Origin: Marsupella aquatica
Taxonomy: Eukaryota; Plantae; Marchantiophyta
Direction of reading: 5' to 3'
Assembly: GCA_973895155.1 (NCBI GenBank)
Contig: OZ316895.1
Span: 18,671,880-18,735,879 of the forward strand
DNA: 64,000 bases
Made by a program: the position numbers and the translations under genes. This document shows positions 1-54,341 of this stretch, in pieces. The notes under the pieces were generated by a model that was not told the origin of the DNA, did not search any database, and was given only the letters and a program-made list of their open reading frames with translations. Position 1 is the first letter of the stretch. Every line of letters starts with the position of its first letter.

Positions 1-48
1 GAAGAAAAGACAGAGGAGAAACGAAGGAAAAAGCAAGATACTACTCCG

Positions 49-3000
49 GTGCAGCCAGCGATAAATACACCCCCGGAAAAGGACGATGACTACCGACGGG
101 ACGACCCGAAGCTGTTCTTCCCCCGCATCGAAGAATTGGTAAAGAAACAGCTGGAGGCTTACGAAGCTCGGGAATACCAGAAGGCAATCGATAAGGACAT
201 CAAAGCAGCCGAGACAGCCCGGCGACAGGAGCAAGAAAAGCAAGATAAACAAGAGGAAGCCAAGCAGCAGCCAACGAAAGAAACAAAGGAGGACTATGAT
301 ATTAAGGAGGACGTGAAGAGTTGCCCGGTTACAGCGACGGTGGGGCAACTGCTGCAGAACAACCCACAGTACAGACGACAACTGAGGGAGTTGCTCATGG
401 GTCGCCGAAGGAGGAGACTACCCCGAGTTGGGAGTGCGGACTGCAACATGATATGCGAGGACCTTGGAGCGCCGGACATCTCGATCAAAATTAATAACTG
501 TACCATCAAGATGGTTCTTGTAGACGGAGGAGCGGGAGTCAACATCATGACTGAAGAAACGTCAATCAAGTTAGGATACCTCACGTATCAACCCACGGTC
601 CGAGCTATCAGATTAGCAAACGGGGCAAGGGTCCTCCCATTAGGCACGCTCACACGAGTGCTCACTCTGGTGGGAGGGGTAGAGTTCTATCTCAACTTCT
701 TAGTCATGAGGCCGGTTCGTCCCTCCTCTTACCCGGTTCTTCTGGGCAGGCCGTGGTTGTACGGTGGCTGCGTAGTCACGGATTGGGGAAAGAAGGAGCT
801 ACGGTTCGGGGAACCCACCGTACGGGTATCCTGGGCAATGGACGATTATCAGGGAGAAACCCCACAAGGACCCGAGGAATATGATTCGGAGACCTCGGAG
901 GAAGAGGAACTCAATATGATCGAACTCATCTCGTCCCTATCCGAGGAAGATGTCTTCGGAGTTGAAGCAACCCGAGAAACACATCTCCTAAATTACCCGA
1001 GGGCTGCCATTGTGTCCACCCCAAGCACATCTACTGTCGGGGATGAGGAAACACACGAACAACTCGTCAAGACGGAGGACACGGCTCCAGCTAAGCAGGG
1101 AGCCGAGGCTACTCCTTCCATTTCAGAGCCACGTAACCATGAACCAGCCCAACAACTGCCTGAGGCCGAAAACTCGAGACCGAGACATAAAAAGCGAGTC
1201 TCATGGGATCCGTCCATTCCGCAATTGGAGGAAGTAAACCCCATCCCGAGACCAATCCCGGCCCCACCCATGTACGGAGGAGTTCGGTTAGCTGAGCTTG
1301 ACGCGAGCCTGGACCCGAGTCTGCGAAACCAGGTTGAAGTCATCAGGAAGGAGCACTACCGGAAGTACACTATTGGGATGGACAAATCTTTTAACCTGGG
1401 CCACGCTCTGATGGGGAAGGCTGAAAAATCCATCCAAGCTTTGCTCAAGGAATATGAAGATGTGTTTGCATGGAGTCATCATGATTTAACAGGCGTCTCC
1501 CCCGAGTTGGGAGAACACACGATCGATCTGAACCTAGGAGCCCATGCGGTACGACAGCAACAACGTCACATGAATCCGAGGTACTCCATCTTAGTGAAGG
1601 AGGAAATTGATCGTCTCCTCGCCGCCGATATCATTTACCCGGTAATGGCCAGCGACTCGGTCTCTCCCATTGTCATTGTACCAAAGAAGGGAGGTACGGA
1701 TGGAAAACCTAAGATTCGTATCTGTCAGGACTACCGTAAGCTGAATGACGCAACCCGAAAAGACCATTACCCATTACCATTCACGGATATGGTTCTAGAT
1801 ATGGTGGCCCGAAATGAAATCTATACATTTCTTGACGGGTATTCAGGTTATAACCAAATCTGGATTCGTCTCGCGGATCAGCTCAAAACAACTTTCACTA
1901 CGGAGTGGGGGACGTTCGCATTTCGGAGGATGCCTTTTGGTCTGTGTAACGCCCCGGCCATGTTTCAGCGCCTTATGATGAATATCTTCCACGATTTCCT
2001 ACGGGAATTTTTGGAGATATTTATCGATGACTTTGCCATCTTCGGAACCGTTGCCATGCACCCCGAACACCTACGACGAACGTTGCAACGATGCCGAGAT
2101 ATTAACCTCAAACTATATCCCGCCAAATGCTTCTTCGGGGTAGAGGAGGGGGTGTTACTCGGGCATCGTGTGTCCAAACGGGGCATTGAGGTGGACCAAG
2201 AGAAAGTTGCGGCCTGGATGGCGGTGGTTTTCCCCTTGGATCAAAAAGCAGTACGATCCTTCTTGGGCTGCGTAGGGTATTACCGCCGGTTCATTAAAGA
2301 CTTTGCTAAAATTGCGTTGCCCTTAACTGAGATGATGAAGAAGGATGCAGTGGTCGAGGAGACACCCCGAAGACGGATTGCTTTTGAGGAACTCCGTAAA
2401 CGACTCACCACCGCGCCTATCATGGTCACCCCAGACTGGAATAAGGAGTTCCACGTGTATGTCGATGTGTCAGGGTTCTGTATCGGATCCGTACTTAGTC
2501 AGCTAGATGAGGATGGACGTGATCACCCCATCTATTTTGCTAGCCGTCAACTATTTGCAGCCAAAAAGAATTATTCCCCCACTGATCGAGAAGCTTTGGG
2601 AATAATCTACTCGTGTAAAAAGTTCCGACACTATCTGCTAGGCTACAAGGTCATTTTCCACACGGATCATGATAGCCTGAAGTACATGGTCAACAAAGCG
2701 GATGTGACAGGACGGATAGCCCGGTGGGTGCTACTTCTCCAGGAATTTAATTACGAAGTTCAGGTTCGGCCAGGAAGGGTACACCTCAATGCCGATTTCT
2801 TTTCATGACTGGACGGCGTACCAGTCGATCAGCCAATTGATGATATTTTTCCGGATGAGGAGTTGTTCCACGTGGGGGAAGGGACACCAACGTGGTACGG
2901 CTCAATAATCACCTTCCTTTTAACAGGCCGCATCCCTGACGGCATCAATCAGGAGGCCGCCGCTGTGTTTTTACGGAAAGCCGGGCCTTACGTCATGATA

Positions 3001-4233
3001 CAGGGTCACCTACATAAGGAAGGTATTAATGGAAAGTTATGACGCTGCTTAGAATATAAGGAGACACTTATCGTGATACGGGCCCTGCATGAAGAAGAAG
3101 CTGGAGGCCATTTCGCGGCAGTTACGACAGCCCGAAAGATTTTGGACTCGGGGTATTGGTGGCCTACGTTGCATCGGAATGTACAGCGCTTCATTAAGGG
3201 TTGTGACTTGTGTCAGCGAGCGGGGGCCCCGAGGCGGGCTCATCATCACCCGCTCACATCTGTGCTTCCATTGGCACCATTCGAAAAATGGGGAATTGAT
3301 TATATCGGGCCGTTCACTCCCGTTACCCGAAGGCGAAGGTGCAGGTACATCCTATTAGCTATTGATTACTCCACCAAATGGGTCGAAGCGCGGGCTATGG
3401 TAAAGGACGACGCCGCAACCAGTGCCAGATTCTTATACGAACAGATTTTCACCCGATTCGGACCGCCCTTAGAATTGGTAAGCGACCGTGGAACCCACTT
3501 CCTCAATGACACCGTAGCCCAGCTTACGGAGCGTTACCTAGTCAAGCACCGCAAAACTACCCCATATCATCCTAAAGCCAACGGGATGGCGGAGAGAGCA
3601 AATGGTATCATTGGGAAGATCCTCAACAAAACTGTAGCTGCGCACAAAACGGATTGGGATGATAAGTTGTACGCAGCGGTGTACTCGTATAATCTAGCTT
3701 ACAAAACTACTACGAGTCACAGCCCGTACTTTCTGGTGTTCGGCCAACATTCGTTGGTGCCCGTCGAATTTGAAGTGCACACTCCACGGGTCAGCATTCG
3801 GGATCGCTTACCTGAATCTGAAAGTCTGTCAGATCGAGCTTATCAGATTGAAGCCTTGGAAGAAGCACGGCTACTGGCAGCTCGACACACCGTGAAGAAA
3901 CAGGCAACTTCGAAGAAGCAGCACGACAAAGGACTACGGAGGGTCGACGTCGTGGCAGGCGATCTAGTCCTTCTGTACGATAGAAGGTACATGCAGTTTC
4001 CAGGGAAGCTGCATACCCGGTGGTTGGGGCCCTTCCTTGTCAATCAGATCTACCGAAACGGATCTTTGGAGCTTGCGACGTATACCGGCGATTTACTCCC
4101 CACGCGAATCAGCTACGATCATGTAAAAAAGTACCACCATCAAGATGACGACGCCGATAGCGATGTTCGCGAGGGCGCTTCACAATTAAGCAGGGAGCTA
4201 TGTGACGCCGCCGGTACGGCGGTTAATGAGTGA
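49..4233 (+). pseudogene. gag-pol remnant (protease, RT, RNase H, integrase) with two in-frame TGA stops
   Basis: Protease VLVDGGAGVN; RT FLDGYSGYNQI and IFIDDF; RNase H FHVYVDVS; integrase HEEEAGGH..CDLC, WGIDYIGP, SDRGTHF. TGA stops at 2806-2808 and about 3040 are consistent with CGA>TGA. The ORF runs 33 nt into the LTR. Confidence 0.93.
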
Positions 4234-4558
4234 TTCAGTCTAACTGCGCTCTGCATGCGCGTTAGGTGGGTCTTAGGCCGCTATTATTAGCATAACGACA
4301 GTATTTAGGTAATCATTAGGGGTAGGACATCATTAGGCAATAAGGGGGACTTCAGGTTTGGACTGGCGGCGGGTCGCTATTCGCACACCCGGGTTACGAG
4401 CGTGGAAGGGCCCCTCCCTCGGGTCCGTATAACGAACTTAAGGAAGCGGCCACTGACGCACGCTGACTCAGACCGGCGGAGTGGCCGGTACACCACAAGC
4501 GTGAGCGGTTCAGCCTATGGGCGTCGAGGAGACGTCGGGGATCGACAAGCCCTCAAAG

Positions 4559-4565
4559 TATAAAA
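4559..4565 (+). promoter_or_regulatory. Candidate TATA box in LTR-C
   Basis: TATAAAAGGG about 360 bp into the LTR and about 100 bp upstream of the ATG at 4667; conserved at 27116-27122. Confidence 0.6.
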
Positions 4566-4666
4566 GGGGAGCCAACCCTTTGTAGTGCACCAGTCCATCA
4601 GTCCGCGCGCCAACTTCGACCCCAGTTCTCTCGTTCTCTCTAGGTTGCCACTACTATCTCCTTTGA

Positions 4667-7312
4667 ATGTCGCACACGATCCTCTCTAGCTTGGCCATTC
4701 AATTCTGGACGCAGTTCCTATCTACCGGAAGGCACTTGGCCGATTCATTGAAACACGCCAACCCGCGCCGATATGAAATCGAACGCGAATACGAGAGAGC
4801 CATCCGCCTAGCAGGACGACACCACTATGTCCTTAACTTTGACTACCCGTCTCAGAGTGAGCTTTACCGACCAGCAGAGGTATCTGGGTACTTCTTCAAC
4901 GAAGACAAATATATCGAGTTCTGGGAAGCATTGCTTCGGCTTCCGGACGAGGTCTTCAATATCCCGGGTATAATCGACCTGCAGCGACATCACTTCGACC
5001 ACATCCCTGCCCGGGTTCGGGCTGTCATTAACGGCGAGTCCAGTACCAACCGTTCGACAAGGGCGTCCGCACTCGCTTCGGAGAACTTCTACCAGCACCT
5101 GCAGAGCTTCATGGGAACTCGGCCATCAACCAACATGACCAACTCAGCCGTGCCCGTACCCGTACCCGTGCCCATGCAACCCCAGCCTCAACCTTAGGCT
5201 CAGCTTCAGCTTCAGCCTCAGCCGCAGCCTAGCCAAACCCCACCACCTATCACCCAGCCAGCACAGGTACGCTCCGTCATCAACGCTGTGGATCTTAGCG
5301 ATGACGACGAGGCTACCCCACCCTTGACCAGGCGGCCCAGAGGAACAAGCGCTCGGGGGGCCGACACTATGTCGTCCCCACCCCCTGCTCTGACCCCAGG
5401 AGCGGCCCCAGCAGACAACATGGTGACCGTGGCCGCCCCGGGCCCGTTACCAACGGCAGTGGCACTCCCCAGGCCTGATCGGGAGGATGGGGAAGTATCA
5501 CCTTCCCCGAGTCAGTCATGGGGAAAGAAGAGGAAGGAATCCGCCACTGCATCCGGGTTACCGTTGGCCACGGTAGCCGTAGCCAAGGTGACGATGCACC
5601 GCATGGGGGAAAACGTTCACAGCAACATCCTCCATCCCAAGCATGCGGTGTACCTGAAGACTCAGGGATTTGAGCACCTCACCTCTCTCCCCTGGAACAC
5701 TTGCAGGTACTACGGGGAGGACATGATAGAATTCGTCAAGAATTATGACGACGTACGTCAACAGACTCGGCTGCAGGGAAGGAATATGTCCCTCACAGAA
5801 GAACGGCTCAAGATGATCTTCGGGTTACCCGAAGGTGACCATCGAGTCGAATCACGGGCTCCCGGGGGCAAGGGGGCCAAGTACCAATCTTCAAGTTTTC
5901 CCTCAGAGGGAGCAGTAGACAACGGGTTCGTGATGAGGACCTGCCTCATGCCCGAGATAGCTGAGCGGCTGGAGTTCCAAAGGTACGCTCTCCACATGAT
6001 GGAACCCCGGGGGGAGATCTCCGCCGCCCAGGTTATCCAGGTCGAGAACTATCGACCTAGGAAATGGGCGTCGTACTTCGCTAAGAAATTCCATGAAGAG
6101 ATGGAGCGGCGAAGGAAGACGCTGTACATTGGCGGGAAGGCGTATTTCGCTAGCCACATCGAAATCATTCTTGAGTGGTACGCCCGGTTTGATCGACGAA
6201 CCCTTCCCCGCATCAACGTTACAAAGCTGGTCCCAGCTAGGTGGGTTTTTCCGGCATTGGAGAGACGGCCCCAACCCGAGGCCCGAAGTCCAGTGGACAC
6301 GCCAGCTTCACCCACCCCACCTCCACAAATAGCTGTAATCGTAACCGAGGAGGCGCCGGAGGGGTCGGTCGTCGCAACCGTTGATGCGACCCAACTAGCC
6401 GGGCTAAGTACAGAAGTTGGTACGGCAGAGGTCTTACCCGAACCCGGGTCTCCCAATGACCCACCGGTGGCAATTCCGGAGAACCGGACATTGCTGCAGG
6501 AGGACACTCCAGCCCCTTCCTCCCCAGGGCTGGACGTCACTGCCCCGGCCCCTGCGCGTGTTGACGTCTGCCCGTGCCCAAATCCGGACAGGCACAACTT
6601 GGACCACCCGGAACTCTTCGTACAGGGTACGTTTCTGAACGGGCTTCTGGGAGATTTCTCTCATCAAATTGCCCGGGATACCGGGGAGTTCATGGCCCGG
6701 AAGGTAGCCTGTTTCTTCAATCAGGAGTTGGTTGCCGCCGTAAAGGCAGGTCGGGCCCTGTCGGAGGCCCTTCAGAGGATAGAGCGGTACCGGGTGGAGT
6801 CCGTGTACCTAAAGAACGAAGTGGCGGCTCAAGAGGCTGAGCTTCTGCAACTACGACCCAAGGTTGCAGCCACCGATGAGTTGTTAGCAAAGGCGCACGC
6901 TCTTACCGCCCTAGCCGAACAGGCCAAAGCTGGGAACGAGGCTGAGATTACACGACTCCCGAACTAGATTGACAGTTTGAAGAAACAAGCTGTCACCTGG
7001 CAGAAAGACCTGGAGGAGGCCGAGGAGCGAGCCCAGCGGGACACGGCGGAGATAGCCACGCTACAGGCCGAGATAGCGCGGCTCCAAACCGAGGCCGAGA
7101 AGCAGGACCAGCTGGCGGGTAAACTGACGAGCGACGCCCAGCAGCTGGAGGAGGCATGTCAGGAGGCAGCAGAGGAGATGGACGCGGCGAGGCGAGAGAA
7201 CGAATCTCTGCTGGACCAGGTCCAGCTCCGCAAAGCGGACAATGACAGGCTTCGAAGGCAGCGGGATGGCCGTTCCCATTCGGGCGGCTCTAGCAAGCGT
7301 GCCAGGCATTAG
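4667..7312 (+). pseudogene. LTR-internal ORF-C (881 codons): N-terminal domain, basic NLS-like patch, plant-transposon-protein/PMD-like domain, low-complexity linker, coiled coil
   Basis: ORFs 4667-5197, 5288-6967 and 6977-7312 share one frame and are separated by single TAG stops; both codons are CAG in the solo copy. Core motif LPW..DMIEFVKNY..TRLQGRNMSLT..IFGLPEG. Confidence 0.85.
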
Positions 7313-8208
7313 CGGCGGAGTAGGAATAGATTAGGATTAGGATTGGCTTAGTCAGGCTCTTGGGACAGGCACCTGCCTTAGGTACAGCAGCGCTGCCCTG
7401 TTGTCCAGCCTGCGTAGATTAGGATCTTCTAATAAGACACAGCCGTTTTCCGGCCTGACTGTCAGCTTAGTTAGGACCTTAGTCAGCAAATCTTCGGTGA
7501 GAGGACACCCCGTCCCTCGGTTCTTAGTATTTAGTGCACCCCTCGGTAGAGGCAGGGGGGTTTTTAGTTTCAGAGTCGGACATCCGCGGGATATGCGGGG
7601 AGTCCCGACCTCTGGGAATGAAAGAGTACCAAGGGGAGGGGGTAGGACTAAGCTCGCCGGGCGAGTGCGGAGCCGGGCTCTGTTGTAGTGTGCACCCTCG
7701 GCCTTGAACCTGTTCATTCCAGGGCTGTCGGGTCAACTAAGTGTACGCATATGTTCCCTTTGTAGTAAAATCCTTTCCCATCATTTTCCTTCGTGTAAAT
7801 CGAGATTGTATGCATGTGTGCGCATATGTGTGTGGGTTTCTCGTATATGGGTGGCAGCGCCAGGCCGAACGCACTACCCGAGACGTGCACAGGGTGCAGC
7901 CTGCGGGTAAGTGGTTGCGAGCACGGGTTGAGGACCTGTATCATCGAATCCGGATCGAAGGCGGACAGCACGAAGGCTTAGAAGCCCTTAAGCCAGGGTC
8001 GATCCTGCTATCGACTAAGGTATGTTCCGGCGGCGGAACATAAACTATACCTAGGAGGTGTCTGTATTTAGCAGTATGCGCACTTAGCGCTAGTTTACGA
8101 GAATAAGGTGCATTACGTGCTTCCCTTCTTGCCCGAACCCTCAGATTTACGAGAGATGTGCCTGTCTAAGCTGAAGTCTGAGTTAAGGCCGAAGCCTACG
8201 ACGTGACA

Positions 8209-11200
8209 TCTGTTGCTCAGGCAAGCCCTCGGGGTGGAAGCACATACCGACAATCAACTCAAGAAGGGTATGAGCAATGTCAATCAAGCTACTCATTTTT
8301 GGGGATGCCTGTTAGAACGGGCAACTGAGTACATTGGGACCTAGGAGGACGAAGAATCAGAGAGAGCAGCTCGAGAACGGCAGGAGCTTGCTCGGCTATG
8401 GGAGCTACATAAGTCTGCTTTCTTAGGAGGAGAACTCATTACGGCTGAATTCTTGTGGACGCCTACTGCCGACGAACTCGACGGTCTTCTGTTTTGTGAG
8501 AACAAAATAGTTGGCATCCGGGAGGCCATCAACCGTTGCAACAACATACACTGGGAGTTGAAGGGTAGCACGGAGGGGTGGACAAAGGCAACCGTGCTAG
8601 GAGAAACATCCACGGCAGCCGCTATGAAGAGGAAAGGGAACAACAACAAAGAAGCCACCCCTGCAAAAAGAACAAGGTCGGCGGCACCCAGGAAACCAGC
8701 AGAGCAGGGAAGCATGAGGCAAGCGGAAGCCAAAGAGGAGGAGGTTGACCCCATCAATGCCGTTCCAACAAGAGATGACACCTGGAAAGGCTGGGCGGCG
8801 ACCCTCCCCGAGGAGGTGCAATTACACTTTGCACGGGAAGAGGATGCATGCTTTACGGATATGCAGACTCGGAAATACCAGGGCTTCATGGCCGGATCCG
8901 GCTTGGAAGAAGCCATAAAGTTACCATGGCTGAAACCGGAGGTGCCGGATTCAGACTTACTAGAATTCATGGGATCATGGGAGCCCGAGACCAATTCCAC
9001 AAGGGTGTATGGGAAGGATTTCTATCTCACTCCCCGGGTGATTGCCGAAATATTTGGCTTGCCGATGGGCAATAAGACCAAAATAGATACTAGGAAGACG
9101 TTGCTAGACAAGGAGTTCCGGTCGTTTCTAGGGCCATCAACAAATAATGGCTTCTTCTGAAACACCTGCACAAACCCGCACATAGGAGAAATGATCAATT
9201 TCTTGTAGGTGACCATGCATTGTAACTTGCCGAGGGCAAAGATCGGCAAGGCACAGGTCTATCTGGGGGAGAGGCCAGACCCAAGCCGAGACTACAACGG
9301 GTACCTCCTCACCCAACTGAAGAAGATCTTGAAGGAGGAACAGCTGGTGATCGGCATGGGAAGCGTGTCCCGGCTTGGTTATCATATGCCGCTGTTGTGC
9401 CGGTATGCCCAAAGTCAGATATTCACCCTGGTACTGCCCCTACAGGCAAGAGCACCATAGGAGGTTGGGGAACTGAGGCCAGCAACAGAGAAACCGACCC
9501 AACCCGACAGTCCTACAATTGAGCAGGCGTTTAGGCCGAGGAAGGAGGACTTGCCGATGCAGCAACCAGGCATGCAGAATCTGCTGAAATTGCTGGAGAA
9601 GGAAAGGAGAACGGCAACGGCAACGGGACCAGTACAAAATACTGCTCCCAAAGTCGGCCTTAGCCAACTTACCAGGGAAAACCCCTTTACCGGGGTCAAG
9701 GAGAGAAGGGGGCTGGAACACGAGCCGGGAGTCCGAATGTATGTAGGAGCTTCAAGTCCCGAAGCCGAGGAAAAGTAGCCCAAAGCTCCTGGTCGCGACA
9801 AGGAGAAGATGAGATCAACATGGAAGCCGGAGGAACCAGGACCCGTGATCTGTGAGGCCGTGTTCATGGCAAGACCAGGACAGCAGCGTGGGGAGCCGGT
9901 AGTCCATGCCGAGGACGAGGCGGTAGAAGGCTACGACAATGATGACTCCGGCTACGGGTCGGACCATCATGTTCCAGGAATAAGGACCTGTGGCAGGTTC
10001 ATCCCCACTCTTCCAAGAGTAGTTCGAGGGGACCCGACCCAGTAGAGCAGCCCCGAGTCTCCCCCACCAGATGTCACTCCCCCTAGCTTTGACGGCATAA
10101 AACAGACAGCACATGAATTTCAGGAATGACTAAGGGAGGAAGAAGAGGCAACCCTGGCTAGGGAGAAAGATTTACCAGGAGGAGAATGGCCAGAGGACAT
10201 CAGGCGGCTTGCAGAAAAATGAAGCAGCCCTCCAGCCACGATAGAAGAAATTTGCAAGGCGGCTTGGGAAGAAAGGCCGTGGTGGATGATGCCGATGACT
10301 TCTACTCACTCCGCCTATGCTAAAGAAAGAGCCATGGAGTACGGGGAGATGTGTGGGGAACTTGCGCTCGGCATCTTTGGGGAGGAGTTTTGGAGCAGGG
10401 ACCCTTTTTCCAGAGGGAAATGTTGGAGAACTGCCAATTAGAAGAAGCGGTGGCTTTGGAGAGAAGCAAGAAGGACGAGGTCACCCGTCAACTTAGGGGC
10501 AGGGAAGCCAAGGTAGAAGACCTGAAGGCGGCCAAGAAAGCCCAAGATGAGCTGCAGATTAAGCGGCATGAGCTCAACATCATGCAGGGGCAATTGGATA
10601 CCGCGCAGTCTGATAATCAGATTATCAAGGATAAACTGACTCGGACCCAAGGTGAGCTGGCCAATTTGATCAAGGAGAAGGAGAAGTGGAAGCGAGAGCT
10701 GAGAGACGCAGAGGAGGCCCACATAGCAGCCAACAATCGGGCCATGGCGGAAACTCAGAGAAGGGAAAGGGCGCTGAAGGGGGAACTCGAGGATATCCGC
10801 GGAGCCCTTGAGCAGAAGGAAGCCGAGTTAGGAAAATCCTATCAGGCGATCATTGTGCTACGGTAGGAGCTCGGATCCATGATGGCCAGCTTCAAGGCCG
10901 ACCTGCGTGAGAAAGACAACCAGCTCGACCAGACTTATGCCAAGATGAATAAACTGGAGTCTCAGGTTGTTACGGAGCTCGACAAGGAGCTGAGAGCAAC
11001 CCAGGAGGAGAGGGCTACCTTAAAGAAGGAATTGGAGGAAGCCCAAAAGGAGCAGAAGGAGGCGCGCAAGGACCTGGATGAATTGCAAGAGGAGTTGGAG
11101 GAAAGCACGCGGAAGATGGAGAACTTACAACGGCGAGCCGACAACCCAAAGGAGCGACTGAAGAAACAGGCCGCAGTATTTAAGTGCTTGGCTTCCTCAG

Positions 11201-12045
11201 GTCCAACTCCAATTGGGGCAACCAAGTTGCCAGGAATAGTACTGGCCGAAGGACAAGCCGAGACACTCGCACCGGTGCCGGAGGTAAGTGGCAAGGGGAA
11301 GGGGCCAGCTGCCGAACCAAAGAAGAAGAAGAAGCAAAAACCTTTTGGGTCAGGGAGTAATACGACTCCTCAAGCCGTCGTGACCAAGGAGGTAAACCCA
11401 ACACCAACCTCAGGCAGTGTCACGGCAGAGGATCCAACTGCCCTAGAAGGCGGGGATGGCAAAGCCGAGGCCAGGATACTCGGTGATGAAGCCAGGGTAC
11501 CGGATCCACCACTAGAGCATGCCGGGGAGGCCATGGCCGATGTTGAGGCCGAAGCCGAGGGTGGACCTAGTCAGGCCGATGGAGAGTTGACTTGGTCCGG
11601 AGCAGGTAATCTGTCAGAGGACGGACCTACGGTAGTGGCTGCGGAGGAAGTGTTGGGGGTGTCCATTGAGGACCAGACACCGCTGCCATGACGGTGGTGG
11701 AGGGCCGCTCCTTTTAAGGAGGACGGACATGGAGGGAGGAGGCGTGAGTGGGTAGGGCGGGCTCAGATCTCCAAGTTTAGAATTAGGATCAGGACCAAGG
11801 GGCGGCCCTGACACTTAGCTTAGTGGGATTGCGGATCCACTGGTAAGAGCAACACTTGTGCTCCTGCCTCGCTATACATAGGTAGATTATAGTTAGGTAG
11901 ATTAGGCTTACGCTGCAAGGAATTAGGCGGATCCACTACCAGGATAAGTACCTAGGCAGCGGGGAGTTTAGGGCCTTCTTCCTTAGCAAGTTTTTAGTGC
12001 ACCAGCAGGGCTGGGATCAAGTAGTTAAAGAAGCTCTCGGTTAGT
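8209..12045 (+). repeat. Family B LTR copy 1 (partial; target of the family C element), with ORF-B remnant 8209-11691 on +
   Basis: Reverse-complement homology to about 16275-20103; begins immediately after the CA of LTR-C; multiple stops and frameshifts. Confidence 0.9.
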
Positions 12046-13680
12046 CCACGGGTCCTTATTCCGGGGACATGATGGTCCGACCCGTAGCCGGAGTCATCAT
12101 TGCCGTAGTCCTCCACCACCTCCTCCCCAAATTGGACTGGCGACTCCCCTCGCTGCTCTCCTGGTCTTGCTGTGAACACGGTTTCCTACCAATCATAGCT
12201 CACAGGTCCTAGTTCCTCCTCCAGCTTCCAGGCTGTCTTGTCCCTCTATTTCCCGTGAACAAGAGCCTTAGGCTGCCTTCCCTCGGCTTCTGGACTTGAG
12301 GCTCCTACATACATTCAAACCCTCGGCTCGTGTTCCGGCCTCCTTCTTTCCTTGGCTCCGGTAAAGGGGTTTTCCTTCATGAGTTGGCTTAGGCCGACCT
12401 TTGAAGTAGTGTCCTGTACCTGTGCCGTTGCTCGTTGCCATTCTCTTTTCCTTCTCCAGCAATTTCAGCAGATTCTGCATGCCTGGTTGCTGCATCGGCA
12501 AGTCTTATGTCCTTGGCCTAAACACCTACTCGATTGTAGGACTGTCGGGCTGGTTTGGTTTCTCTATTGTCGACCTCTATTCCGGATAGAGATAGAAACC
12601 CTTCCCATACACCCTTGTGGAATTGGTCTCGGGCTCCCATGCATGATCCCATGAATTCTAGTAAGTCTGAATCCGGCACCTTCGGTTTCAGCGATGGTAA
12701 CTTTACAAAGACTTCCAAGCCGGATCCGGCCATGAAACCCTGGTATTTCCGAGTCTGCATAGCTGTAAAGCATGCATCCTCTTCCCGTGCAAAGTGTCAT
12801 TGTTGGAACGACATTGATGGGGTCGACCTCCTCCTCTTTGGCTTCCGCCTGCCTCATGCTTCCCTGCTCTGCTGGTTTCCTGGGTGCCGCCGACCTTGTT
12901 CTTTTTGTAGGGGTGGCTTCTTCGTTGTTGTTCCCTTTCCTCTTCAGAGCGGCTGCCGTGGATGGTTCTCCTAGCACAGTTGCCTTTGTCCACCCCTCTG
13001 TGCTACCCTTCAACTCCCAATGTATGTCGTTGCAGCGGTTGATGGCCTCCCGGATGCCGACAATTCTGTTCTCGCAAAACAGAAGGTCGTCTAGCTCGTT
13101 GCCAGTAGGTGTCCACAGGAATTTGGCCTTGATGAGTTCTCCTCCTAAGAAAGCAGACTTTTGCAGCTCCCACAGTCAAGCGAGCTCGTGCCTTTCTTGA
13201 GCTGCTCTCTCCAATTCTTCATCTTTGTAGGTCCCAATGTACTCAGTTGCCCGTTCGAACAGGCATCCCCAAAAATGAGCAACTTGATTGACGTTGCTCA
13301 TACCCTTCTTGAGTTGATTGTCGGTATCTGCTCCCACCCCGAGTGCTTGCCTAAGCAGCTGACAATAGTTGGTCTCCCGTAGTCGTCTGCTTAGTTTGTG
13401 CTTGCAAATGAGCCACCATTCCTTGCGATCGGTCCTTACACCCCCCCTTTGCCCGGTCTTCCTTCCCCTTGGTTACCCATAGCCGCCGGTACTTAGCGCA
13501 CCCTAACCCTAATTGTGTTCCCTCCCCCGGCGTCCTTACTTCCGGCCTTGGCTCGGGTTCCATAGTCACCCTTAATTGTTTATATTTTCCAATTTTTTGT
13601 TACTATACTAATGTGTTTCCAGGGTACACTACTGATTTTACTATTTAAACTGGCCTAGTGATTCCTGGCTAGGCATCACA
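12046..13680 (-). repeat. Family B LTR copy 2 (terminal fragment, opposite orientation, two internal deletions)
   Basis: Ends GGCATCACA at 13680, as at 20418. Deletions near 12585 and 12797 relative to the other copies. Abuts the integrase of element A. Confidence 0.9.
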
Positions 13681-15722: not shown

Positions 15723-18700
15723 TGTGGTGCGTCCCATGGCTCCCTAAACCCAAGAAACCCCTCTGCACAAGCCGATTCCCGCAGGTTTAGCTCTTGGCGA
15801 GGCGGATTTTGCGGCTTAGCGGCATGGGACGCTGCTAACTTCCTTCTACTATTATTACTATTAACATTTTACTCACAGATACTGGACAGATCCTTCATCG
15901 GGTCATGAGATACGTAGCCAACCTATTCTAGGCCTTCCCTTGTCCTCCTCTCTTGGCTTTCCTTTAGGTATGTTTGGATTCCACCGCCGGAATGATCCCC
16001 AACTGGCTTGGGTAAGCCGCTAAGACCTCTCTCAGCTTGACACATCCAACTCTTACTACCTCGCTTACTCCCTTCTTGGTTGATGTGGGCAATCTTTAAA
16101 CAGGTTAATGCGACACACAAATAGCAAAATGACTCCTTCTGACTGAGTTATACCATGCACTTGCCATACAAACAGTACTTCTCATATACAAGATCTACAA
16201 ACTAAGCCGTGAGGCCAACTCTATTCATCTCTTAGGTATGAGGAAACATGACTATACACAAGGGTCACAGTATAACTAACTGAGAGCTTCTTTAACTACT
16301 TGATCCCAGCCCTGCTGGTGCACTAAAAACTTGCTAAGGAAGAAGGCCCTTAACTCCTCGCTGCCCAGGTACTTATCCTGGCAGTGGACCCGCCTAATTC
16401 CTTGCAGCATAATCCTAATCTACCTAACTATAATCTACCTATGTACAGCGAGGCAGGAGCACAAGTGTTGCTCTTACCAGTGGATCCGCAATCCCACTAA
16501 GCTAAGTGTCAGGGCCGCCCCTTGGTCCTGATCCTAATACTAAACTTGGAGATCTGAGCGCGCCCTGCCCACTCACGCCTCCTTCCTCCATGTCCGCCCT
16601 CCTTAAAAGGAGCGGCCCTCCACCACCGTCATGGCAACGGTGTCTGGTCCTCAATGGACGCCCCCAATGCTTCCTCCGCAGCCACTATTGTAGGTCCGTT
16701 CTTTGACAAATTACCTGCTCTGGATCGAGTCAACTCTCCATCGGCCTGACTGGGTCCACCCTTGGCTTCGGCCTCAGCATCGGCCACGGCCTCAGATACG
16801 GTTACGGCCTCCCTGGCATGCTCTAGTGGTGGATCCGGTACCCTGGCTTCATCACCGAGTATCCTGGCCTCGACTTTGCCATCCCCGCCTTCTAGGGCAA
16901 TTGGATCCTCTGTCGTGACCCTGCCTGAGGTTGGTGTTGGGTTTACCTCCTTGGTCACGACGGCTTGAGGAGTCATATTACTCCCTGACCCAGAAGGTTT
17001 CCGCTTCTTCTTCTTCCTTGGTTCGGCAGCTGGCCCCTTCCCCTTGCCACTTACCTCCGACACCGGTGTGAGTGTCTTGGCTTATCCTTTGGCCAGTACT
17101 ACTCCTGGCAACTTGGTTGCCCCAATTGGAGTTGGACCTGAGGAAGCTAAGCACTTAAATACTGCGGCCTGTTTCTTCAGCCGCTCCGTTTGGTTGTCGG
17201 CTTGCCGCTATATGTTCTCCATCTTCCGCGTGCTTTCCTCCAACTCCTTCTGCAATTCATCCAGGTCCTTGCGCGCCTTGTCCCGCTCCTTCTGGGCTTC
17301 CTCCAATTCCTTCTTTAAGGTAGCCCTCTCCTCCTGAGTTGCTCTCAGCTCCTTGTCGAGCTCCGTAACGACCTCAGACTCCATTTTATTCATCTTGGCA
17401 TAAGTCTGATCAAGCTAGTCGTCTTTCTCACGCAGGTCGGCCTTGAAGCTGGCCGTCAGGGATGCAAGCTCCTGCCGCAGCATGATAATCGCCTGATAGG
17501 ATTTCCCTAACTCGGCCTCCTTCTGCTCAAGGGCTCCGCGGATATCCTTGAGTTCTCCCTTCAGCACCCTTTCCCCTCTATGAGTTTCCGCCATGGCCCG
17601 ATTGTTGGCTGCGATGTGGGCCTCCTCTGCGTCTCTCAGCTCTCGCTTCCACTTCTCCTTCTCCTTGATCAAATCGGCCAACTCTCCTTGGGTCCGAGTC
17701 AGTTTATCCTTGATAATCTGATTATCACACTGCGCGGTATCCAATTGCCCCTGCATGATGTTGAGCTCATGCCGCTTAATCTGCAGCTCATCTTGGGCTT
17801 TCTTGGCCGCCTTCAGGTCTTCTACCTCGGCTTCCCTGGCCCTAAGCTGACGGATGACCTCGTCCTTCTTGCTTCTCTCCAAAGCCACCGCTTCTTCTAA
17901 TCGGCGCTTCTCCAACATTTCCCTCTGGAAAAAGGGTCCTTGCTCCAACTCCTCCCCAAAGATGTTGAGCGCAAGTTCCCCACACATCTCCCCGTACTCC
18001 ATGGCTCGTTTTTTAGCATAGGCGGAGTGAGTAGAAGTCATCGGCATTATCCACCGCAGCCTTTTTTCCCAAGCCGCCTTGCGGATTTTTTCTGTCGTGG
18101 CTGCAGGGCTGTTTTGTTTTTCTGCAAGCCGCCTGATGTCCTCTGGCCATTCTCCTCCTGGTAAATCTTTCTCCCTAGCCATGGCTGCCTCTTCTTCCTC
18201 CCTGAGTCGTTCCTGAAACTCCTGTGCCATCTGTTTTATGACGTCAAAGCACGGGGGAGCGACATCTGGTGGGGGAGACTCGGGGTTGCTCTGTTGGGTT
18301 GGGTCCCCTCGAACTACTCTTGGAAGAGTGGGGATGAACCTGCCACAGGTCCTTATGCCAAAGTCATCATTGTCGTAGCCTTCTACCGCCTCCTCCTCGG
18401 CTTGGAGTACCGGCTCCCCCCGCTACTGTCCTGGTCTTGCCGTGAACACGGCCTCACAAATCACGGGTCCTGGTTCCTCTGGCTTCCACGTTGATCTCAT
18501 CTTCTCCCTGTCGCGACCAAGAGCTTTGGGCTGCTTTTCCTCGGCTTCAGGACTTGAAGCTCCTACATACATTCAGACTCCCAGCTCGTGTTTTGGCCTC
18601 CTTCTCTCCTTGACCCCGGTAAAGGGGTTTTCCCTGGTAAGTTGGCTATTAAGGCTGACTTTGGGAGCAGTATTTAGTACCGGTCCCGTTGCCGTTGCCA

Positions 18701-20418
18701 TTCTCCTTTCCTTCTCCAGCAATTTCAGCAGATTCTGCATGCCTGGTTGCTGCATCGGCAAGTCCTCCTTCCTTGGCCTAAACACTTGCTCGATTGTAGG
18801 ACTGTCGGGCTGGGTCGGTTTCTCTATTGTCGGCCTTGGTTCCGGAACCTCCTCTGGTGCTCTTGCCTGCAGGGGCAGTACCGGGGCGAATATCTGACTT
18901 CGGGCATACCGGCACAACAACGGCATATGATAACCAAGCCGGGACACGCTTCCCATGCCGATCACCAACTGTTCCTCCTTCAAGATCTTCTTTAATTGGG
19001 TGAGGAGGTACCCATTGTAGTCTCAGCTTGGGTCTGGCTTCTCCGCCAGATAGATCTGTGCCTTGCCAATCTCTGCCCTCGGCAAGTTGCAATGCATGGT
19101 CACCCGCAAGAAATCGATCATTTCTCCTATGTGCGGGTTTGTGCAGGTGTTTCGAAAGAAGCCATTCTTTGTTGATGGCCCTGGAAATGACCGGAACTCC
19201 TTGTCTGGCAAGGTCTTCCTTGTATCTACTTTGGTCTTATTGCCCATCGGCAAGCCAAACACTTCGGCAATCACCCGGGGAGTGAGATAGAAATCCTTCC
19301 CATATACCCTTGTGGAATTGGTCTCAGGCTCCCATGATCCCACAAATTCTAGTAAGTCTGAATCCGGCACCTTCGACTTCAGCCATGGTAACTTTACGAA
19401 GGCTTCCAAGCCAGATCCGGCCATGAAGCCCTGGTATTTCCAAGTCTGCATAGCCGTAAAGCATGCATCCTCTTCCCGTGCAAAGTGTAATTGCACTTCC
19501 TTGGGGAGGGTTGCCGCCCAGCCTTTCCAAGTGTCATCTCTTGTTGGAACAGCATTGATGGGGTCAGCCTCCTCCTCTTTGGCTTCCGCCTGCCTCCTGC
19601 TTCCCTGCTCTACTGGTTTCCTGGGTGCCGCCGACCTCATTCTTTTTGCAAGGGTGGCTTCTTTGTTATTGTTCCCTTTCCTCTTCATAGCGGCTGTCGT
19701 GGATGTTTCTCCTAGCACGGTTGCCTTCGTCCACCCCTCCGTGCTACCCTTCAACTCCCAGTGTATGTCATTGCAGCGGTTGATGGCCTCTCGGATGCCG
19801 ACTATTCTGTTCTCACAAAACAAAAGATCCTCAAGTTCGTCGGCAGTAGGCGTCCACAAGAATTCAGCCGTAATGAGTTCTCCTCCTAAGAAGGCAAACT
19901 TCTGTAGCTCCCACAGCCAAGCGAGCTCCTGCAGTTCTCGAGCCGCTCTCTCCGATTCTTTGTCCTCGTAGGTCCCAATGTACTCAGTTGCCCGTTCGAA
20001 CAGGCATCCCCAAAAATGAGCAGCTTGATTGACGTTGCTCATACCCTTCTTGAGTTGATTGTCGGTATCTTCTTCCACCCCAAGTGCTTGCCTGAGTAGC
20101 GGACAGTAGTTGGCCTCCCGTAGTCGTCCGCTTGGCTCGTGCTTGCAAATGAGCCGCCATTCCTTGCGATCGGTCCTTACCCCCCCTGGCTGGTCTTCCT
20201 TCCCGTTGGTTACCCATAGCCGCCGGTACTTAGCGCGCCCTAACCCTAATCATGTTCCCTCCCCCGACGTCCTTACTTTCGGCCTTGGCTTGGGTTCCAT
20301 AGTCACCCTTAATTGTTTATATTTTCCCTGTTTTTGTTACTATACTAAGGTATTTCCTAGGGTACACTCTTGATTTTACTATTTAAACTGGCCTAATGAT
20401 TCCTGGCTAGGCATCACA
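15723..20418. repeat. Family B solo LTR, complete, 4696 bp
   Basis: TGTG(G/A)TGC...GCATCACA terminal inverted repeat; perfect TSD CTCTC (15718-15722 and 20419-20423); no gag/pol inside. Confidence 0.9.
16629..20300 (-). pseudogene. LTR-internal ORF-B (about 1220 codons), homologous to ORF-C, with a long C-terminal coiled coil
   Basis: Chain of minus-strand ORFs from the ATG at 20300 (MEPKPRP) to EDQTPLP-stop. Motif LPW..DLLEFVGSW..TRVYGKDFYLT..VFGLPMG. Lesions mostly differ among the four copies. Confidence 0.82.
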
Positions 20419-20423
20419 CTCTC

Positions 20424-24200: not shown

Positions 24201-24419
24201 TATTTGTTGCCTACCAAAATCACATTACTTATCCCTTTACATCTTCTTAGAACAACACATTTTCTCCCTTCCATGATTTCCTACTAGCCTTTCCTAGTGA
24301 CTTAGGGTTGCAAACCCTAAGTACTTTGCTAACACTACAACAACTTTCTTACTATTCCTTGTACAAACAACAAAAAAATTGACAAGTTCCTTACATACCC
24401 TATATTGAGCCGGTCCACA
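21282..24419. repeat. Family D solo LTR (3138 bp) inserted in the DNMT domain
   Basis: TGT...ACA ends; TSD CAGTC/CAATC (4 of 5 match); excision restores GHGVGL-HDSCSGLF in frame; no long ORF. Confidence 0.82.
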
Positions 24420-26756: not shown

Positions 26757-29700
26757 TGTGACGCCGCCAGTACAGCGAGTAATGAGTAATTCGGTCTAAA
26801 CCGTGCCTAGCACGCGCGTTAGGAGCATCTTAGGCCGCTATGATTAGCATAACGACAATATTTAGGTAGCCATTATGAGTAGGAAATCATTAGTCAATAA
26901 GGGGAATTCATGTTCGGGCTGGCGGCGCGTCGCCATTCGCACACCTGGGTTACGAGCATGGAGGGGCCCCTCCCTCGGGTCCGTATAGCAAACTTCGGGA
27001 GGCGTCCACTGACACGCGGTGACTCAGACCGGCGGAGTGGCCGGTACACTACAAGCGTGAACGGTTCAGCCTATAGGCAACGAGGAGATGTTGGGGGATC
27101 GACAAGCCCTCAAGGTATAAAAAGGGAGCCGACCCTTTGGAGTGCACCAGTCCATCAGTCCACGCGCCAACTTCGACCCCAGCTCTCTCGTTCGCTCTAA
27201 GTCGCCACTACTATCTCCTCTGAATGTCGCACACGATGCTCTCCAGTTCGGCCATTCAATTCTGGACGCAGTTCCTATCTACCGGAAGACACTTGGCCAA
27301 CTCATTGAAACACGCCAACCCGCGCCGATATGAAATCGAATGCGAGTATGAGAGAGCCATCCGCCTAGCAGGATGACACCACTACATCCTTAACTTTGAC
27401 TACCCATCTCAGAGCGAGCTTTACCGACCAGCAGAGGTATGTGGGTACTTCTTTAATGGAGACAAATATATCGGTTTTTGGGAAGCATTGCTTCGGCTTC
27501 CGGACGAGGTCTTCAATATCCCGGGTACGATTGACTTGCAACGACATCACTTCGACCACATCCCTGCTCAGGTTCGGGCTATCATCAACAGTGAGTCCAG
27601 CACTACCCGTTTGACAAGGTCATCTACACTTGCTTCAGAGAACTTCTACCAGCACCTACAGAGCTTCATGGGAACTAGACCCGCAACCACCGGCGCCAAC
27701 CCAGTCGACCCCATACCCGTATCCGCACCAACGCAGACTCAGGCTCAGGCTCAACTTTAGTCTCAGTCTCAGCCTAGCCAACCCCCACCGCCGATCGCCC
27801 CGCCAGCAGTACAAGTACGCTCTGTCATCAACACTGTGGACCTTAGCGACGACGACGAGGCTACCCCACCCTTGCTCAGGCGGCCCAGAGGAGCAAACAC
27901 TCAGGGGGCCGACACTATATAGTCCCCTCCCCATGCTCGGACCCAAGGAGCGGCTCCAGCAGACAACACGATGACCGTGGCCGCCCCGGGACCAATACTA
28001 ACGGCGGTAGCACTACCTATGCCCGATCGAGAGGATGGGGAGGTGTCACCTTCCCCGAGCCAGTCACGGGGGAAGAAGAGGAAGGAACCCGCCACTGCAT
28101 CCGGGTTACCATTGGCCACGGTAGCCGTGGCCAAGGTGACAATGCACCGCATGGGGGAAAACGTGCATAAGAACATCCTCCATCCCAAGCATGCAGTGTA
28201 CCTGAAGACTCAGGGATTCGAGCACCTCGCCTCTCTCCCCTGGAACACTTGAAGGTACTACGGGGAGGACATGACAGAATTCGTCAAGAATTATGATGAC
28301 GCACGTCAACATACTCGGCTGCGGGGAAGGAATATGTCCCTCACGAAAGAACGGCTCAAGATGATCTTTGGATTACCCGAAGGTGACCATCGAGTCAAAT
28401 CACGGGCTCCCGGGGGCAAGGGAGCCAAGTACCAATCCTCGAGTTTTCCCTCAGAGGGAGCAGTGGACAACGGGTTCGTGATGAGGACCTGCCTCATCCC
28501 CGAGATAGCTGAGCGACTAGAGTTCCAAAGGTACGCCCTCCACATGATGGAACCCCGGGGGGAGATCTCCGCCGCCCAGGTTATCCAGGTCGAGAACTAT
28601 CGACCTAGGAAGTGGGCGTCGTACTTTGCTAAGAAATTCCATGAAGAGATGGAGCGGCGAAGGAAGATGTTGTACATTGGCGGGAAGGCGTATTTTGCTA
28701 GCCACATCGAGATCATTCTTGAGTGGTACACTCGATTTGATCGACAAACCCTTCCCCGTGTCAACGTTACAAAGCTTGTCCTTGCTAGGTGGGTTTTTCC
28801 GGCCTTGGAGAGACGGCCCCAACCCGAGGCCCAAAGTCCAGCGGACACGCAAACTTCACCCACCCCACCTCCACAAGTAGCTGTAGTCGTAACTGAGGAG
28901 GTACCGGATGGGTCGGTTATCGCAACCATAGATGCGATCCAACAGGCCGGGCTAAGTACAGAAGTCGGTACAGCGGAGGTCTTACTCAAGCCCGGGTCTC
29001 CCAAAGACCCACTGGTGGCTATTCCGGAGAACCAGACATTGCTGCAAGAGGACACTCCAGCCCCTTCCAACATTACGTCCCCAGGGCTGGATGTCACTGC
29101 CCCGGCCCCCGCGCGTGTTCACGTCTGCCCGTGCCCAACTCCGGACAGGCACAACCTGGACCACCCGGAACTCTTCATACCGGGTGGTCCAGGTCTATCC
29201 TCTGACCTGGCCCAGTCAGAGTTCCGGGTGGTCCAGGTCCAGAGGATAGAGCGGTACCGGGTGGAGTCCGTATACTTAAAGAACGAAGTTGTGGCTCAAG
29301 AGGCTGAGCTTTTGCAACTACGACCCAAAGTTGCAGCCGCTGATGATTTGTTAGCAAAGGCGCACGCCCTTACCGCCCTAGCCGAGCAGGCCAAAGCTGG
29401 GAACGAGGCCGAGATTGCACGACTCCGGAACCAGATTGACAGTTTGAAGAATCAAACTATCATCTGGCAGAAGGATCTGGAGGAGGCCGAAGAACGGGCC
29501 CAACGGGACACTGCGGAGATAGCCACGCTACAGGCCGAAGTGGCACGGCTCCAAACCGAAGCCGAGAAGCAGGACCAGCTGGCGGGCAAGCTGACGAGCG
29601 ACGCCCAGCAGCTGGAGGAGGCAACGGAGGAGACAGATGCGGCGAAGCGAGAGAACGAATCTCTGCTGGACCAGGTCCAGCTCCTCAAGGCGGACAACGA

Positions 29701-30664
29701 TAGACTTTGTAAGCAGCGGGATGGCCGCTCCCACTCGGGCGGCTCTGGCAAGGGTGCCAGGCATTAGCGGCGGAGTAGGAATAGAATAGGGTTAGGAGTA
29801 GCTAAGTCAGGCTATTGGGACAGGCACCTGCCTTAGTTACAGCAGCACTGCCATGCTGTCCAACCTGCGTAGATTAGGATCTTCTAATAAGACACAGCCA
29901 TTTTTTGGCCTAACAGTCAGATTAGTTAGGACCTAAGTCAGCGAATCTTCGAGCGGGAGGACACTCCGTTCCTCGGCCCTTAGTATTTAGCGCACCCCTC
30001 GGTAGAGGCAGGGGGGTTTTTAGTCTCAGAGTTGGACATCCGTGGTATGCGTGGGGAGTCCCGACCTCTGGGAGTGAAAGAGTACCAAGGGGAGGGGGTA
30101 GGACTAAGCTCGTTGGGCGAGTGCGGAGCCAGGTTCCGTTGTAGTATACTCTCTCGGCCTTGAACCTGTTCATTCCGGAGCTGTCGGGTCAACCAAGTGT
30201 ACGCACATGTCCCCTATGTAGTAAAATCCTTTCCCATTATTTTCTTCGTGTAAATCAAGATTGTATGCTTGTACGCGTGTATGTGTGTGTGAATCTCGTG
30301 TATAGGTGGCAACGCCGGGCCGAACGCACTACCCGAGTCGTGCACGGGGTGCAGCTTGCGGGTATGTGGTTGCGAGCATGGTTTAAGAACCTGTATCATT
30401 GAATCCGGATCGAAGGCGGACAATACGAAGGCTTAGAAGTTCTTAAGCCGGGGTCGATCCTGTTATCGACTAAGGTACGTTCCAGCGGTGGAACATAAAC
30501 CATACCTAGGAGATGTCCGTATCTAACAGTAGGCGCACTTAGCGCTAGTTTACGTGAATTAGGTGCATTACGGGCTTCCCTCCCTGCCCGAACCCTCATA
30601 TTTACGAAGGAGGTGCCCGTTTAAAGCTGAAGCCCGAGTTAAGGCCAAGGCTGATGACGTGACA
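26757..30664 (+). repeat. Family C solo LTR, 3908 bp, containing ORF-C remnant 27224-29767
   Basis: TGTGACG...CGTGACA; perfect TSD TGGGC (26752-26756 and 30665-30669); excision restores gag AEKLELAH-AHYEAS in frame. Confidence 0.95.
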
Positions 30665-31430: not shown

Positions 31431-31600
31431 TGATGCAGAAAGAGTAAAGGGTAAAGAAGCGATAGCAGACTTTGGGGTAGTGGTGAAGCGACCACCAAAT
31501 GTAGCAGAAGGGTTGCGTGGTGTGGGTGCTGCTGCTGTTTGCTGACGCCGTCAAAATTGTCGAGATTCCAATGAAATTGGCACCAACGGTCGTGGATCAC

Positions 31601-33077: not shown

Positions 33078-33180
33078 TAAGCAGCTGAGACAAGAATGTC
33101 TCCTACCTTCTTCCCCTTGTCAGCAACTCAGCAGTTCTTCTTGAATAAAAGGCGTAAGAGTGCACTACACTAGCAGGAGG

Positions 33181-44060: not shown

Positions 44061-44089
44061 CTCCACGGGAGTGACAAGGTCTGATTGGG

Positions 44090-53400: not shown

Positions 53401-54184
53401 TGTTCCGGCCTTCTTCTTTCCTTGGCTTCGGTAAAGGGTTTTTCCCTTGTAAGTTGGCTGAGACCTACCTCTGGAGCAATGTCCTGTACCAATGTCGTTG
53501 CCGTCGCAGCCCTTTTTTCCTTCTCCAGCAATTTCAAAAGATTTTGCATGCCTGGTTGCTGCATCGGCAAGTCTTCCGTCCTCGGCCTAAACACTTGTTT
53601 GATCGTAGGACTACCGGGCTGGTTGGGTTTCTCTACTGCCGGCCTCTAGTCCGGAACCTCCTCTGGTGCCCTTGTCTGCAGGGGAAGTACTGGGGCAAAG
53701 ATCTAACTTTGGGCATACCGGCACAACAACGGCATGTGATAGCCAAGCCGGGACACACTTCCCTTGCCGATCACCTGCTGTTCCTCCTTCAAGATCTTCT
53801 TCAGTTGGGTGAGGAGGTACCCGTTGTAGTCCCGGCTTGAGTCTGGCCTCTCAGCTAGGTAGACTTGTGCCTTGCGGATCTCTGGCCTCGGTAGGTTGCA
53901 GTGCATGGTTACCCGCAAGAAATCAATCATCTCCCCAATGTGCGGGTTGGTGCAGGTGTTCCAAAAGAAGCCATTGTTGGTTGATGGCCCTAGGAACGAC
54001 CGGAACTCCTTGTCTGGCAAGGCCTTCTTGGTATCTACTTTGGTCTTATTGCCCATTGGCAAGCCAAACACCTCGGCAATCACCTGGGGAGTGAGATAGA
54101 AATCCTTCCCATACACCCTTGTGGAATTTGTCTCGAGATCCCATGATCCCACGAATTCTAATAAGTCAGAATCCGGCACCTCCG
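50463..54184 (-). repeat. Family B LTR copy 4, truncated, with ORF-B remnant on the minus strand
   Basis: Starts TGTGATGCGTCCCATGG; colinear with 15723 to about 19375. Confidence 0.92.
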
Positions 54185-54341
54185 ATGTCATAAAGAAATG
54201 AGTTTTAGAGTTAGAATACCTCACATAGAGTTTCTCACTCCATTAGACATTATTAAAAATTAAATAAAAATAAATAGTGTGACTTAGAGTAGTCATTTAT
54301 AAATTATTAGATATAATAGACCAAAATCATAGAATAGGTGG

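Follow-up and report, generated by a model that had tools for sequence, protein, structure and literature searches.

Two retrotransposon LTR families of the liverwort Marsupella aquatica carry a gene for a protein with a predicted VANC21-like core

Main finding

A 64,000-nucleotide stretch of the genome of the liverwort Marsupella aquatica (GenBank assembly GCA_973895155.1, contig OZ316895.1, positions 18,671,880 to 18,735,879 of the forward strand; hereafter the window) was analysed. In it, two distantly related families of long terminal repeats (LTRs) of 4–4.7 kb, termed LTR-C and LTR-B, each hold a whole protein-coding gene within the LTR termini. This gene is real, old and selected. The core of its product is predicted to adopt a DNA-binding fold like that of VANC21, and by this prediction the protein would function like VANC. 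Its place inside the LTR, its liverwort host and an N-terminal domain for which Pfam has no model set it apart from the known kinds.

LTR-C and LTR-B have the same layout. A leader (466 nt in C, 376 nt in B) is followed by one long frame (881 and 1137 codons, respectively) and then by about 900 nt of non-coding sequence. The protein consists of an N-terminal domain, a low-complexity linker with a basic patch, the core, a linker rich in Pro, Glu and Ala, a coiled coil and a further basic patch. The features of family C and of its open reading frame (ORF) are as follows.

1..4233, +: gag-pol of family C (Ty3/gypsy; protease, reverse transcriptase (RT), RNase H, integrase); its 5' part lies upstream of the window
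4188..4200, +: purine-rich tract immediately 5' of the LTR, likely the polypurine tract (from the sequence)
4201..8208, +: LTR-C copy 1 (C1), a 3' LTR of 4008 bp with TG...CA termini, sharing 88% identity along its length with 26757-30664
4559..4565, +: TATA-like box at LTR position 358-360 in C1 and C2 (motif scan)
4667..7312, +: ORF-C copy 1, 881 codons in a single frame with 2 internal stops
4688..4975, +: shared N-terminal domain of ORF-C, about 100 aa (hidden Markov model (HMM), hhalign)
5525..5536, +: basic patch KKRK, resembling a nuclear localisation signal, 5' of the core; the homologue P0044 has a similar patch in the same place
5594..6187, +: conserved core of ORF-C with a predicted fold like VANC, DUF1985 and the plant mobile domain (PMD)
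6758..7268, +: coiled-coil region of ORF-C, with approximate limits (coiled-coil Pfam matches below cutoff on C2)
7292..7309, +: C-terminal basic patch of ORF-C
26757..30664, +: LTR-C copy 2 (C2), with a 5-bp target duplication (26752-26756 / 30665-30669)
27224-29767, +: ORF in C2 with 4 internal stops; core 28142-28729

Family C belongs to Ty3/gypsy, as seen from the order protease, RT, RNase H and integrase, the purine tract, the TG...CA LTR and the target duplication. Pfam models RVT_1, RT_RNaseH, Integrase_H2C2 and rve were matched in element C, and the protease motif was recognised by eye. Neither a chromodomain nor a second RNase H was among the Pfam matches. The integrase stop codon is located 33 nt within the LTR. 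A 5-bp direct repeat on either side of C2 marks it as a solo LTR.

The stretch 6628-6773 before the coiled coil is absent or replaced in C2 (net 90 nt, frame kept). One contig of the public sequencing run X1 also skips it, so the difference possibly marks a subfamily. In runs X1 and X2, contig depth summed to about 5x more on LTR-C than on the internal region; these runs had been found with the LTR, and the depth, which does not give a copy number, was not used.

Four copies of LTR-B lie in the window.

8214..12045, +: copy 1 (B1), interrupted on its 5' side by element C and 3'-truncated; core 8846-9397
12046..13680, -: copy 2 (B2), 5' end kept, with an internal deletion
15723..20418, -: copy 3 (B3), a complete solo LTR of 4696 bp with TG...CA termini; 5-bp target duplication 15718-15722 / 20419-20423
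16632..20042, -: ORF-B copy 3, 1137 codons in a single frame with 6 internal stops; N-terminal domain about 19740-20030, core 18900-19466
near 19620-19685, -: basic patch KRK...KRMR of ORF-B, before the core
50463..54190, -: copy 4 (B4), 5'-truncated; core 53724-54182

Family B thus has TG...CA ends and a target duplication, and its internal gag-pol region lies outside the window. At the boundary of B3, public contigs have loose ends at 15722/15723 in all four runs, and empty-site contigs occur in two of them. In run X2 one contig runs on from the end of LTR-B into a run of T and TGGCGC, which we take to have the shape of a primer-binding site. All six copies of the LTR ORF in the window (C1, C2, B1-B4) are broken by stops or truncation. 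At 12045/12046, two truncated LTR-B copies abut in opposite orientation without a spacer.

Homology of the two LTR proteins

A sequence-only reading of this DNA had proposed that the two LTR proteins are homologous, from motifs at 5667-6039 (+) for ORF-C and within the ORF 19023-20249 (-) for ORF-B. This proved correct. BLASTP aligned the cores with 72.8 bits and E=4e-18 (43 of 137 residues identical), and with E=9e-20 (43/156) for a second B copy. The local alignment score was 190, compared with a mean of 29.9 and a maximum of 53 among 1000 shuffles, none of which came as high. An HMM was built from 45 of 49 non-window homologues after removal of short or unaligned rows. In the six-frame translated window it picked up, at 74-212 bits, the five copies that retain most of the core (C1, C2, B1, B3 and B4). 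The deleted copy B2 gave no hit, and no other sequence scored above 5 bits. The core comprises about 195 aa. The homology extends beyond the end point first given and reaches about 6187 in C and about 18900 in B.

The architecture proposed in the same reading holds for the most part. The basic patch before the core, the P/E/A-rich linker and the coiled coil are all present in both proteins. A basic patch near the C-terminus is also found in both, but the distal patch of B is followed by about 130 further aa and belongs to a tail whose ratio of non-synonymous to synonymous change (dN/dS) is 1.1-1.4. An alignment score of the coiled coils of C and B (0/1000 shuffles) was set aside because shuffling destroys the heptads.

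The N-terminal domain had been overlooked. It is visible in C, in B and in six database proteins. With an HMM of five non-window homologues, the domain of ORF-C reached 41.6 bits (shuffle maximum 9.5), and that of B just 13.5 bits (shuffle maximum 6.5). Comparison of C and B by hhalign gave a probability of 70.9%, E=3.8e-5 and a score of 32.3, versus a maximum of 19.8 in 100 column shuffles. A direct pairwise alignment was not significant (165/1000 shuffles), so the support comes from the profile tests only.

The absence of DNA similarity between the families is borne out for the ORF, where no blastn match was better than E=0.19, but not for the whole LTR, since both share a 29-nt hairpin element close to the 3' end. 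In aligned codons of C and B, identity is 0.42, 0.55 and 0.29 at positions 1, 2 and 3. The value at position 3 indicates that silent sites are saturated.

Selection and relatives

The dN/dS values were obtained from transition-weighted Nei-Gojobori counts. For the core, they are 0.19 for C1/C2 (confidence interval 0.09-0.38), 0.18 for B3/B4 (0.10-0.35), 0.30 for B3/B2 (69 codons) and 0.48 for B3/B1 (0.26-1.00), the closest pair. In this pair, decay after insertion would weigh most. The N-terminal domain gave 0.23-0.34 (ORF-C 0.27) and the coiled-coil region of ORF-C 0.39; the neutral-like values of B are those of the tail past the coiled coil. Insertions and deletions mostly keep the frame inside the ORFs and are mostly of 1 nt outside.

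A full phmmer search of 1.84 billion representative proteins returned 42 matches, versus 0 and 4 matches in word-index protein searches. Of 20 relatives looked up, five belong to clusters with an organism name, in each case the liverwort Calypogeia fissa, and 15 to clusters without one. The RT of element C shares 73% identity with a Calypogeia protein and is sister to three Calypogeia RTs with a support of 100/99, in a tree of 32 rows built with 30 of 120 matches and without lineage-labelled references. A tree of the core, from the 35 of 54 rows with at least 130 aa, has several deep branches. Calypogeia is represented on four of these, and the branch of B is long. As to genomic context of the relatives, no confirmed loci were found in metagenome or viral contigs, and a search with the hairpin pattern gave no matches.

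The proposal of an old, selected factor is supported: third codon positions are saturated, the two diverged pairs show low core dN/dS and relatives occur on several deep branches. Both points on which it could have failed came out in its favour, as the alignment of the ORF-B and ORF-C cores is significant and core dN/dS is well below 1.

Predicted fold and family membership

The only clear structural match of the core is VANC21 (PDB entries 9LNJ/9LNK). The predicted structure shows the VANC21 core fold and was aligned over 203 of 216 residues at 9% identity. A single-sequence fold prediction had a predicted local distance difference test value (pLDDT) of 31.9 and was not used. Language-model neighbours of the core carry DUF1985 or PMD, with scores of 0.86-0.89, at the level of a lead, and PMD is present in 14-18% of cluster members. 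Sequence searches of the PDB with two profiles gave coiled-coil or chance matches only, no PMD structure was among the entries listed in the PDB searches, and a viral fold library gave nothing at E<=0.001.

By the Pfam definitions, the LTR protein is outside VANC, PMD, Transposase_32 and ATHILA ORF-1. The cores in the window matched no Pfam family; neither core nor N-terminal domain has a Pfam model. At cutoff, there was no match to DUF1985 (PF09331), PF10536 (PMD) or PF03078 (ATHILA ORF-1), and no HMM match to DUF287. DUF1985 and PF03078 were also not among the families shown (25 of 83) for the 54 alignment members; each of the remaining families was touched by a single member, with E of at least 0.076. 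The suggested kinship with Transposase_32 (PF20167), Athila or PMD therefore did not stand at the HMM level, where just one of the 54 members touched PF20167 (E=0.059). The PMD group, however, gains indirect fold-level support via VANC21. An anti-silencing role, as predicted from the fold, is better supported than the sequence-only reading could show, because VANC21 is the sole clear structural match and the language-model neighbours carry DUF1985 or PMD.

Non-coding elements of the LTRs

Candidate cis-elements comprise TTAG, a short repeat and a hairpin; all three are weak candidates.

7317..7344, +: 6-nt tandem repeat, 4.8 copies, just 3' of the C1 stop in a TTAG-rich non-coding stretch; weak candidate for a binding array
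8024..8053, +: hairpin with a 6-bp stem, 4-nt loop and tail; the sole DNA element common to LTR-C and LTR-B

TTAG is enriched 2-3x in seven of seven non-coding segments and in none of four controls; the enrichment is strand-specific, and the motif was chosen after looking. The hairpin is kept in all four copies that cover it, with 24 of 24 cells paired and two base pairs in which both partners have changed; as high a value occurred in 40 of 500 shuffles. Sharing of the 29-nt element between C and B was reached by 4 of 1000 shuffles, the statistics being from four sequences. No motif specific to one family stood out strongly in k-mer searches (5-8 nt), with p at best about 0.02 before correction. 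The VANC21 motif is absent from C1, C2 and B3 and occurs once in B4.

Proposed role and alternatives

The explanation that we prefer, with about even confidence, is that the VANC21-like LTR protein likely binds short motifs in the DNA of its own family and relieves host silencing in trans. Transcription would start from the TATA-like box at the LTR 5' end, likely the promoter of the LTR gene, and terminate within the 0.9 kb past the stop codon; 5', 3' and solo LTRs could each produce the mRNA. The basic patches would serve nuclear import, and the coiled coil may mediate multimerisation, as predicted for VANC21. The protein would then bind family-specific motifs in the non-coding flanks of the LTR. 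DNA methylation or trimethylation of histone H3 Lys27 (H3K27me3) would be removed or blocked; the data do not distinguish which mark. It could be H3K27me3, because transposable elements (TEs) are repressed by PRC2 in Marchantia (10.1101/2022.10.24.513474).

Two layouts are conceivable. If the ORF lies in U3, a sense ORF after pol would have been absorbed into the LTR once a purine tract at the pol terminus began to be used. This fits because the integrase stop lies within the LTR and the 0.9-kb tails are equal. If it lies in R or U5, the 5' TATA box would drive the genomic RNA and the ORF would lead it. With either layout, a solo LTR would keep leader, gene and tail.

Several observations weigh against relief of silencing via bound motifs. 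Long target arrays like those of VANC were not found in the LTRs, where the 28-nt 6-mer repeat after the C1 stop is the single repeat of this kind. Silent CpG relative to expectation is mixed and indirect evidence, with 0.66-1.04 for family C and 0.61 for B, the latter at the level of the copia element (0.53-0.65). CpG sites change 1.9-3.6x faster between copies. The fold match to VANC21 is middling and no proof of function.

Less probable, at perhaps one chance among a few, is that the protein binds element DNA while the silencing marks stay, either by simple transactivation of the LTR promoter or as an adaptor for nuclear import or targeting of the integration complex. Fold, basic patches and selection data would suit this too, and a gene in the LTR resembles retroviral accessory regulators such as MMTV sag and HIV nef, which overlap U3. 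Regulation or import has also been proposed as the role of additional ORFs of plants (PMC7264820). However, the characterised carriers of the fold, VANC and MAIN/MAIL1/MAIL2, are described as acting on chromatin marks.

We regard an action on RNA or on the particle as unlikely. The protein might be a Rev-like factor for export or packaging that uses the shared hairpin, or have an env-like structural role via its coiled coil. The hairpin with its compensatory changes as the sole shared DNA element and the strand-specific TTAG enrichment both suit RNA signals, and Athila-type sense ORFs after pol have been called env-like (PMC7264820). On the other hand, the best structural match of the core is a DNA-bound protein, the viral fold library held no significant match, no transmembrane stretch is evident by eye, and the hairpin statistics come from those four sequences.

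More doubtful still is self-limitation, with the protein as a repressor that would compact or silence its own family and cap copy number. The PMD proteins MAIL1 and MAIN were first described in this way, as acting in silencing (PMC5418596), and solo LTRs would spread such a repressor while copies accumulate. Later work reads MAIL1/MAIN as opposing Polycomb silencing (10.1101/2024.09.27.615353), and the families are highly repeated, with 34,510 contig pieces on window positions 1-12100 in one run.

A captured host gene fragment carried as a passenger without benefit to the element would agree with the broken copies and the neutral B tail, but it is largely refuted and very improbable, since dN/dS is well below 1 between TE copies, indels keep the frame, and the same gene occupies the same place in two LTR families otherwise diverged beyond recognition in DNA.

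Relation to known systems

VANC proteins, which contain DUF1985, attach to short motifs in the non-coding DNA of their own transposon family and bring about a loss of methylation (PMC5735166). Predictions make VANC and MAIN/MAIL1 structural homologues and give VANC a coiled coil through which it would multimerise (10.1101/2024.04.02.587720, PMC13547354, 10.1101/2024.09.27.615353). Like VANC21 and VANC6 of the VANDAL (MuDR-like) DNA transposons, the LTR protein has the predicted fold, is a transposon accessory protein, and combines a conserved domain among variable regions with a coiled coil. Unlike them, it sits within a retrotransposon LTR of a liverwort, and the sequence upstream of C1 is gag-pol with no VANDAL/MuDR transposase context. 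MAIN/MAIL1/MAIL2 (genic PMD-C) are reported structural homologues of VANC and probably belong to the same fold superfamily. Their link to the LTR protein is indirect, via VANC, and they are host genes and not mobile.

Coding sequence within a terminal repeat is known from MMTV sag and HIV nef. These proteins are unrelated, and in the present case the LTR accommodates an entire ORF of 2.6-3.4 kb together with a promoter-like leader of its own. Athila sense 3' ORFs (PF03078) and Transposase_32 (PF20167) share with the LTR ORF the sense orientation after pol and the coiled coil, whereas the LTR ORF lies past the purine tract, inside the LTR. The PMD-A (PF10536) ORFs of Tat/Ogre are likewise accessory ORFs in Ty3/gypsy elements, of a non-chromoviral type to which family C may belong, but the LTR protein has no PF10536 match. 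A PMD with a coiled coil was reported for recent Tat lineages (PMC4408406), and very long LTRs are known in this group (PMC6317226). Tat eORFs were reported to start in gymnosperms and to be lacking from the Tat-like elements of moss (PMC4408406).

According to a review, additional ORFs lie in the internal region (PMC7264820). An LTR-internal ORF is not described in the available text of PMC10508981, PMC12885004, PMC12859917, PMC12844716 and PMC11963269. In the literature covered, with most subscription papers, supplements and REXdb tables outside its scope, we found no plant ORF wholly inside an LTR and no VANC-fold protein of a retrotransposon.

The function of the extra ORFs of plant LTR retrotransposons is described as an open question (PMC4408406, PMC7264820). 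Sequence-specific anti-silencing is documented in VANDAL DNA transposons, and a VANC-fold retrotransposon protein would offer a concrete, testable mechanism. Given its location in the LTR, solo-LTR formation would not remove the gene. The liverwort host also bears on the origin of the fold. Gypsy-encoded PMDs are known in angiosperms (PMC5418596, PMC6317226), the origin of the PMD fold in Gypsy elements or host genes was called 'fully open' (PMC5418596), and VANC was described as dicot-specific with a proposed origin by capture of MAIN (PMC13547354).

We tentatively suggest, as a possibility short of an even chance, that a liverwort Ty3/gypsy lineage moved a VANC-like, sequence-specific anti-silencing gene into its LTR, and that the VANC/PMD fold is an ancient retrotransposon weapon predating angiosperm MAIN and VANC. 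If so, each solo LTR that host recombination leaves behind would hold promoter, gene and binding sites as one self-sufficient unit, and the main route by which the host deletes retrotransposons would preserve their counter-defence.

Other elements in the window

Both solo LTRs lie in a third element of Ty3/gypsy type at about 13660-31550 (-). Between its protease and RT, weak pieces resembling C5 cytosine methyltransferases were found at 24297-24680 (PF00145, E=0.064) and 20554-21294 (DNMT3A, E=0.025). Its silent CpG is 0.00-0.14 of expectation, the lowest in the window. Retrotransposons bearing DNMT genes reportedly exist in charophytes and dinoflagellates.

The ORF 43976-45241 (-) has a weak match to N6/N4 DNA methylases (PF01555, E=0.03; DpnA, E=0.046). 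Nearby are unannotated ORFs (45896-46795) and a Cys/His-rich ORF (49584-50162), and the region is possibly a DNA transposon bearing an amino-methyltransferase. An internal duplication of 68% identity links 43595-44037 and 44649-45088. A long interspersed nuclear element (LINE) and a Ty1/copia element are located at 33145-39715 and 59158-63848. The LINE has its endonuclease and RT on the + strand and a zf-RVT piece on the - strand at 39095-39715.
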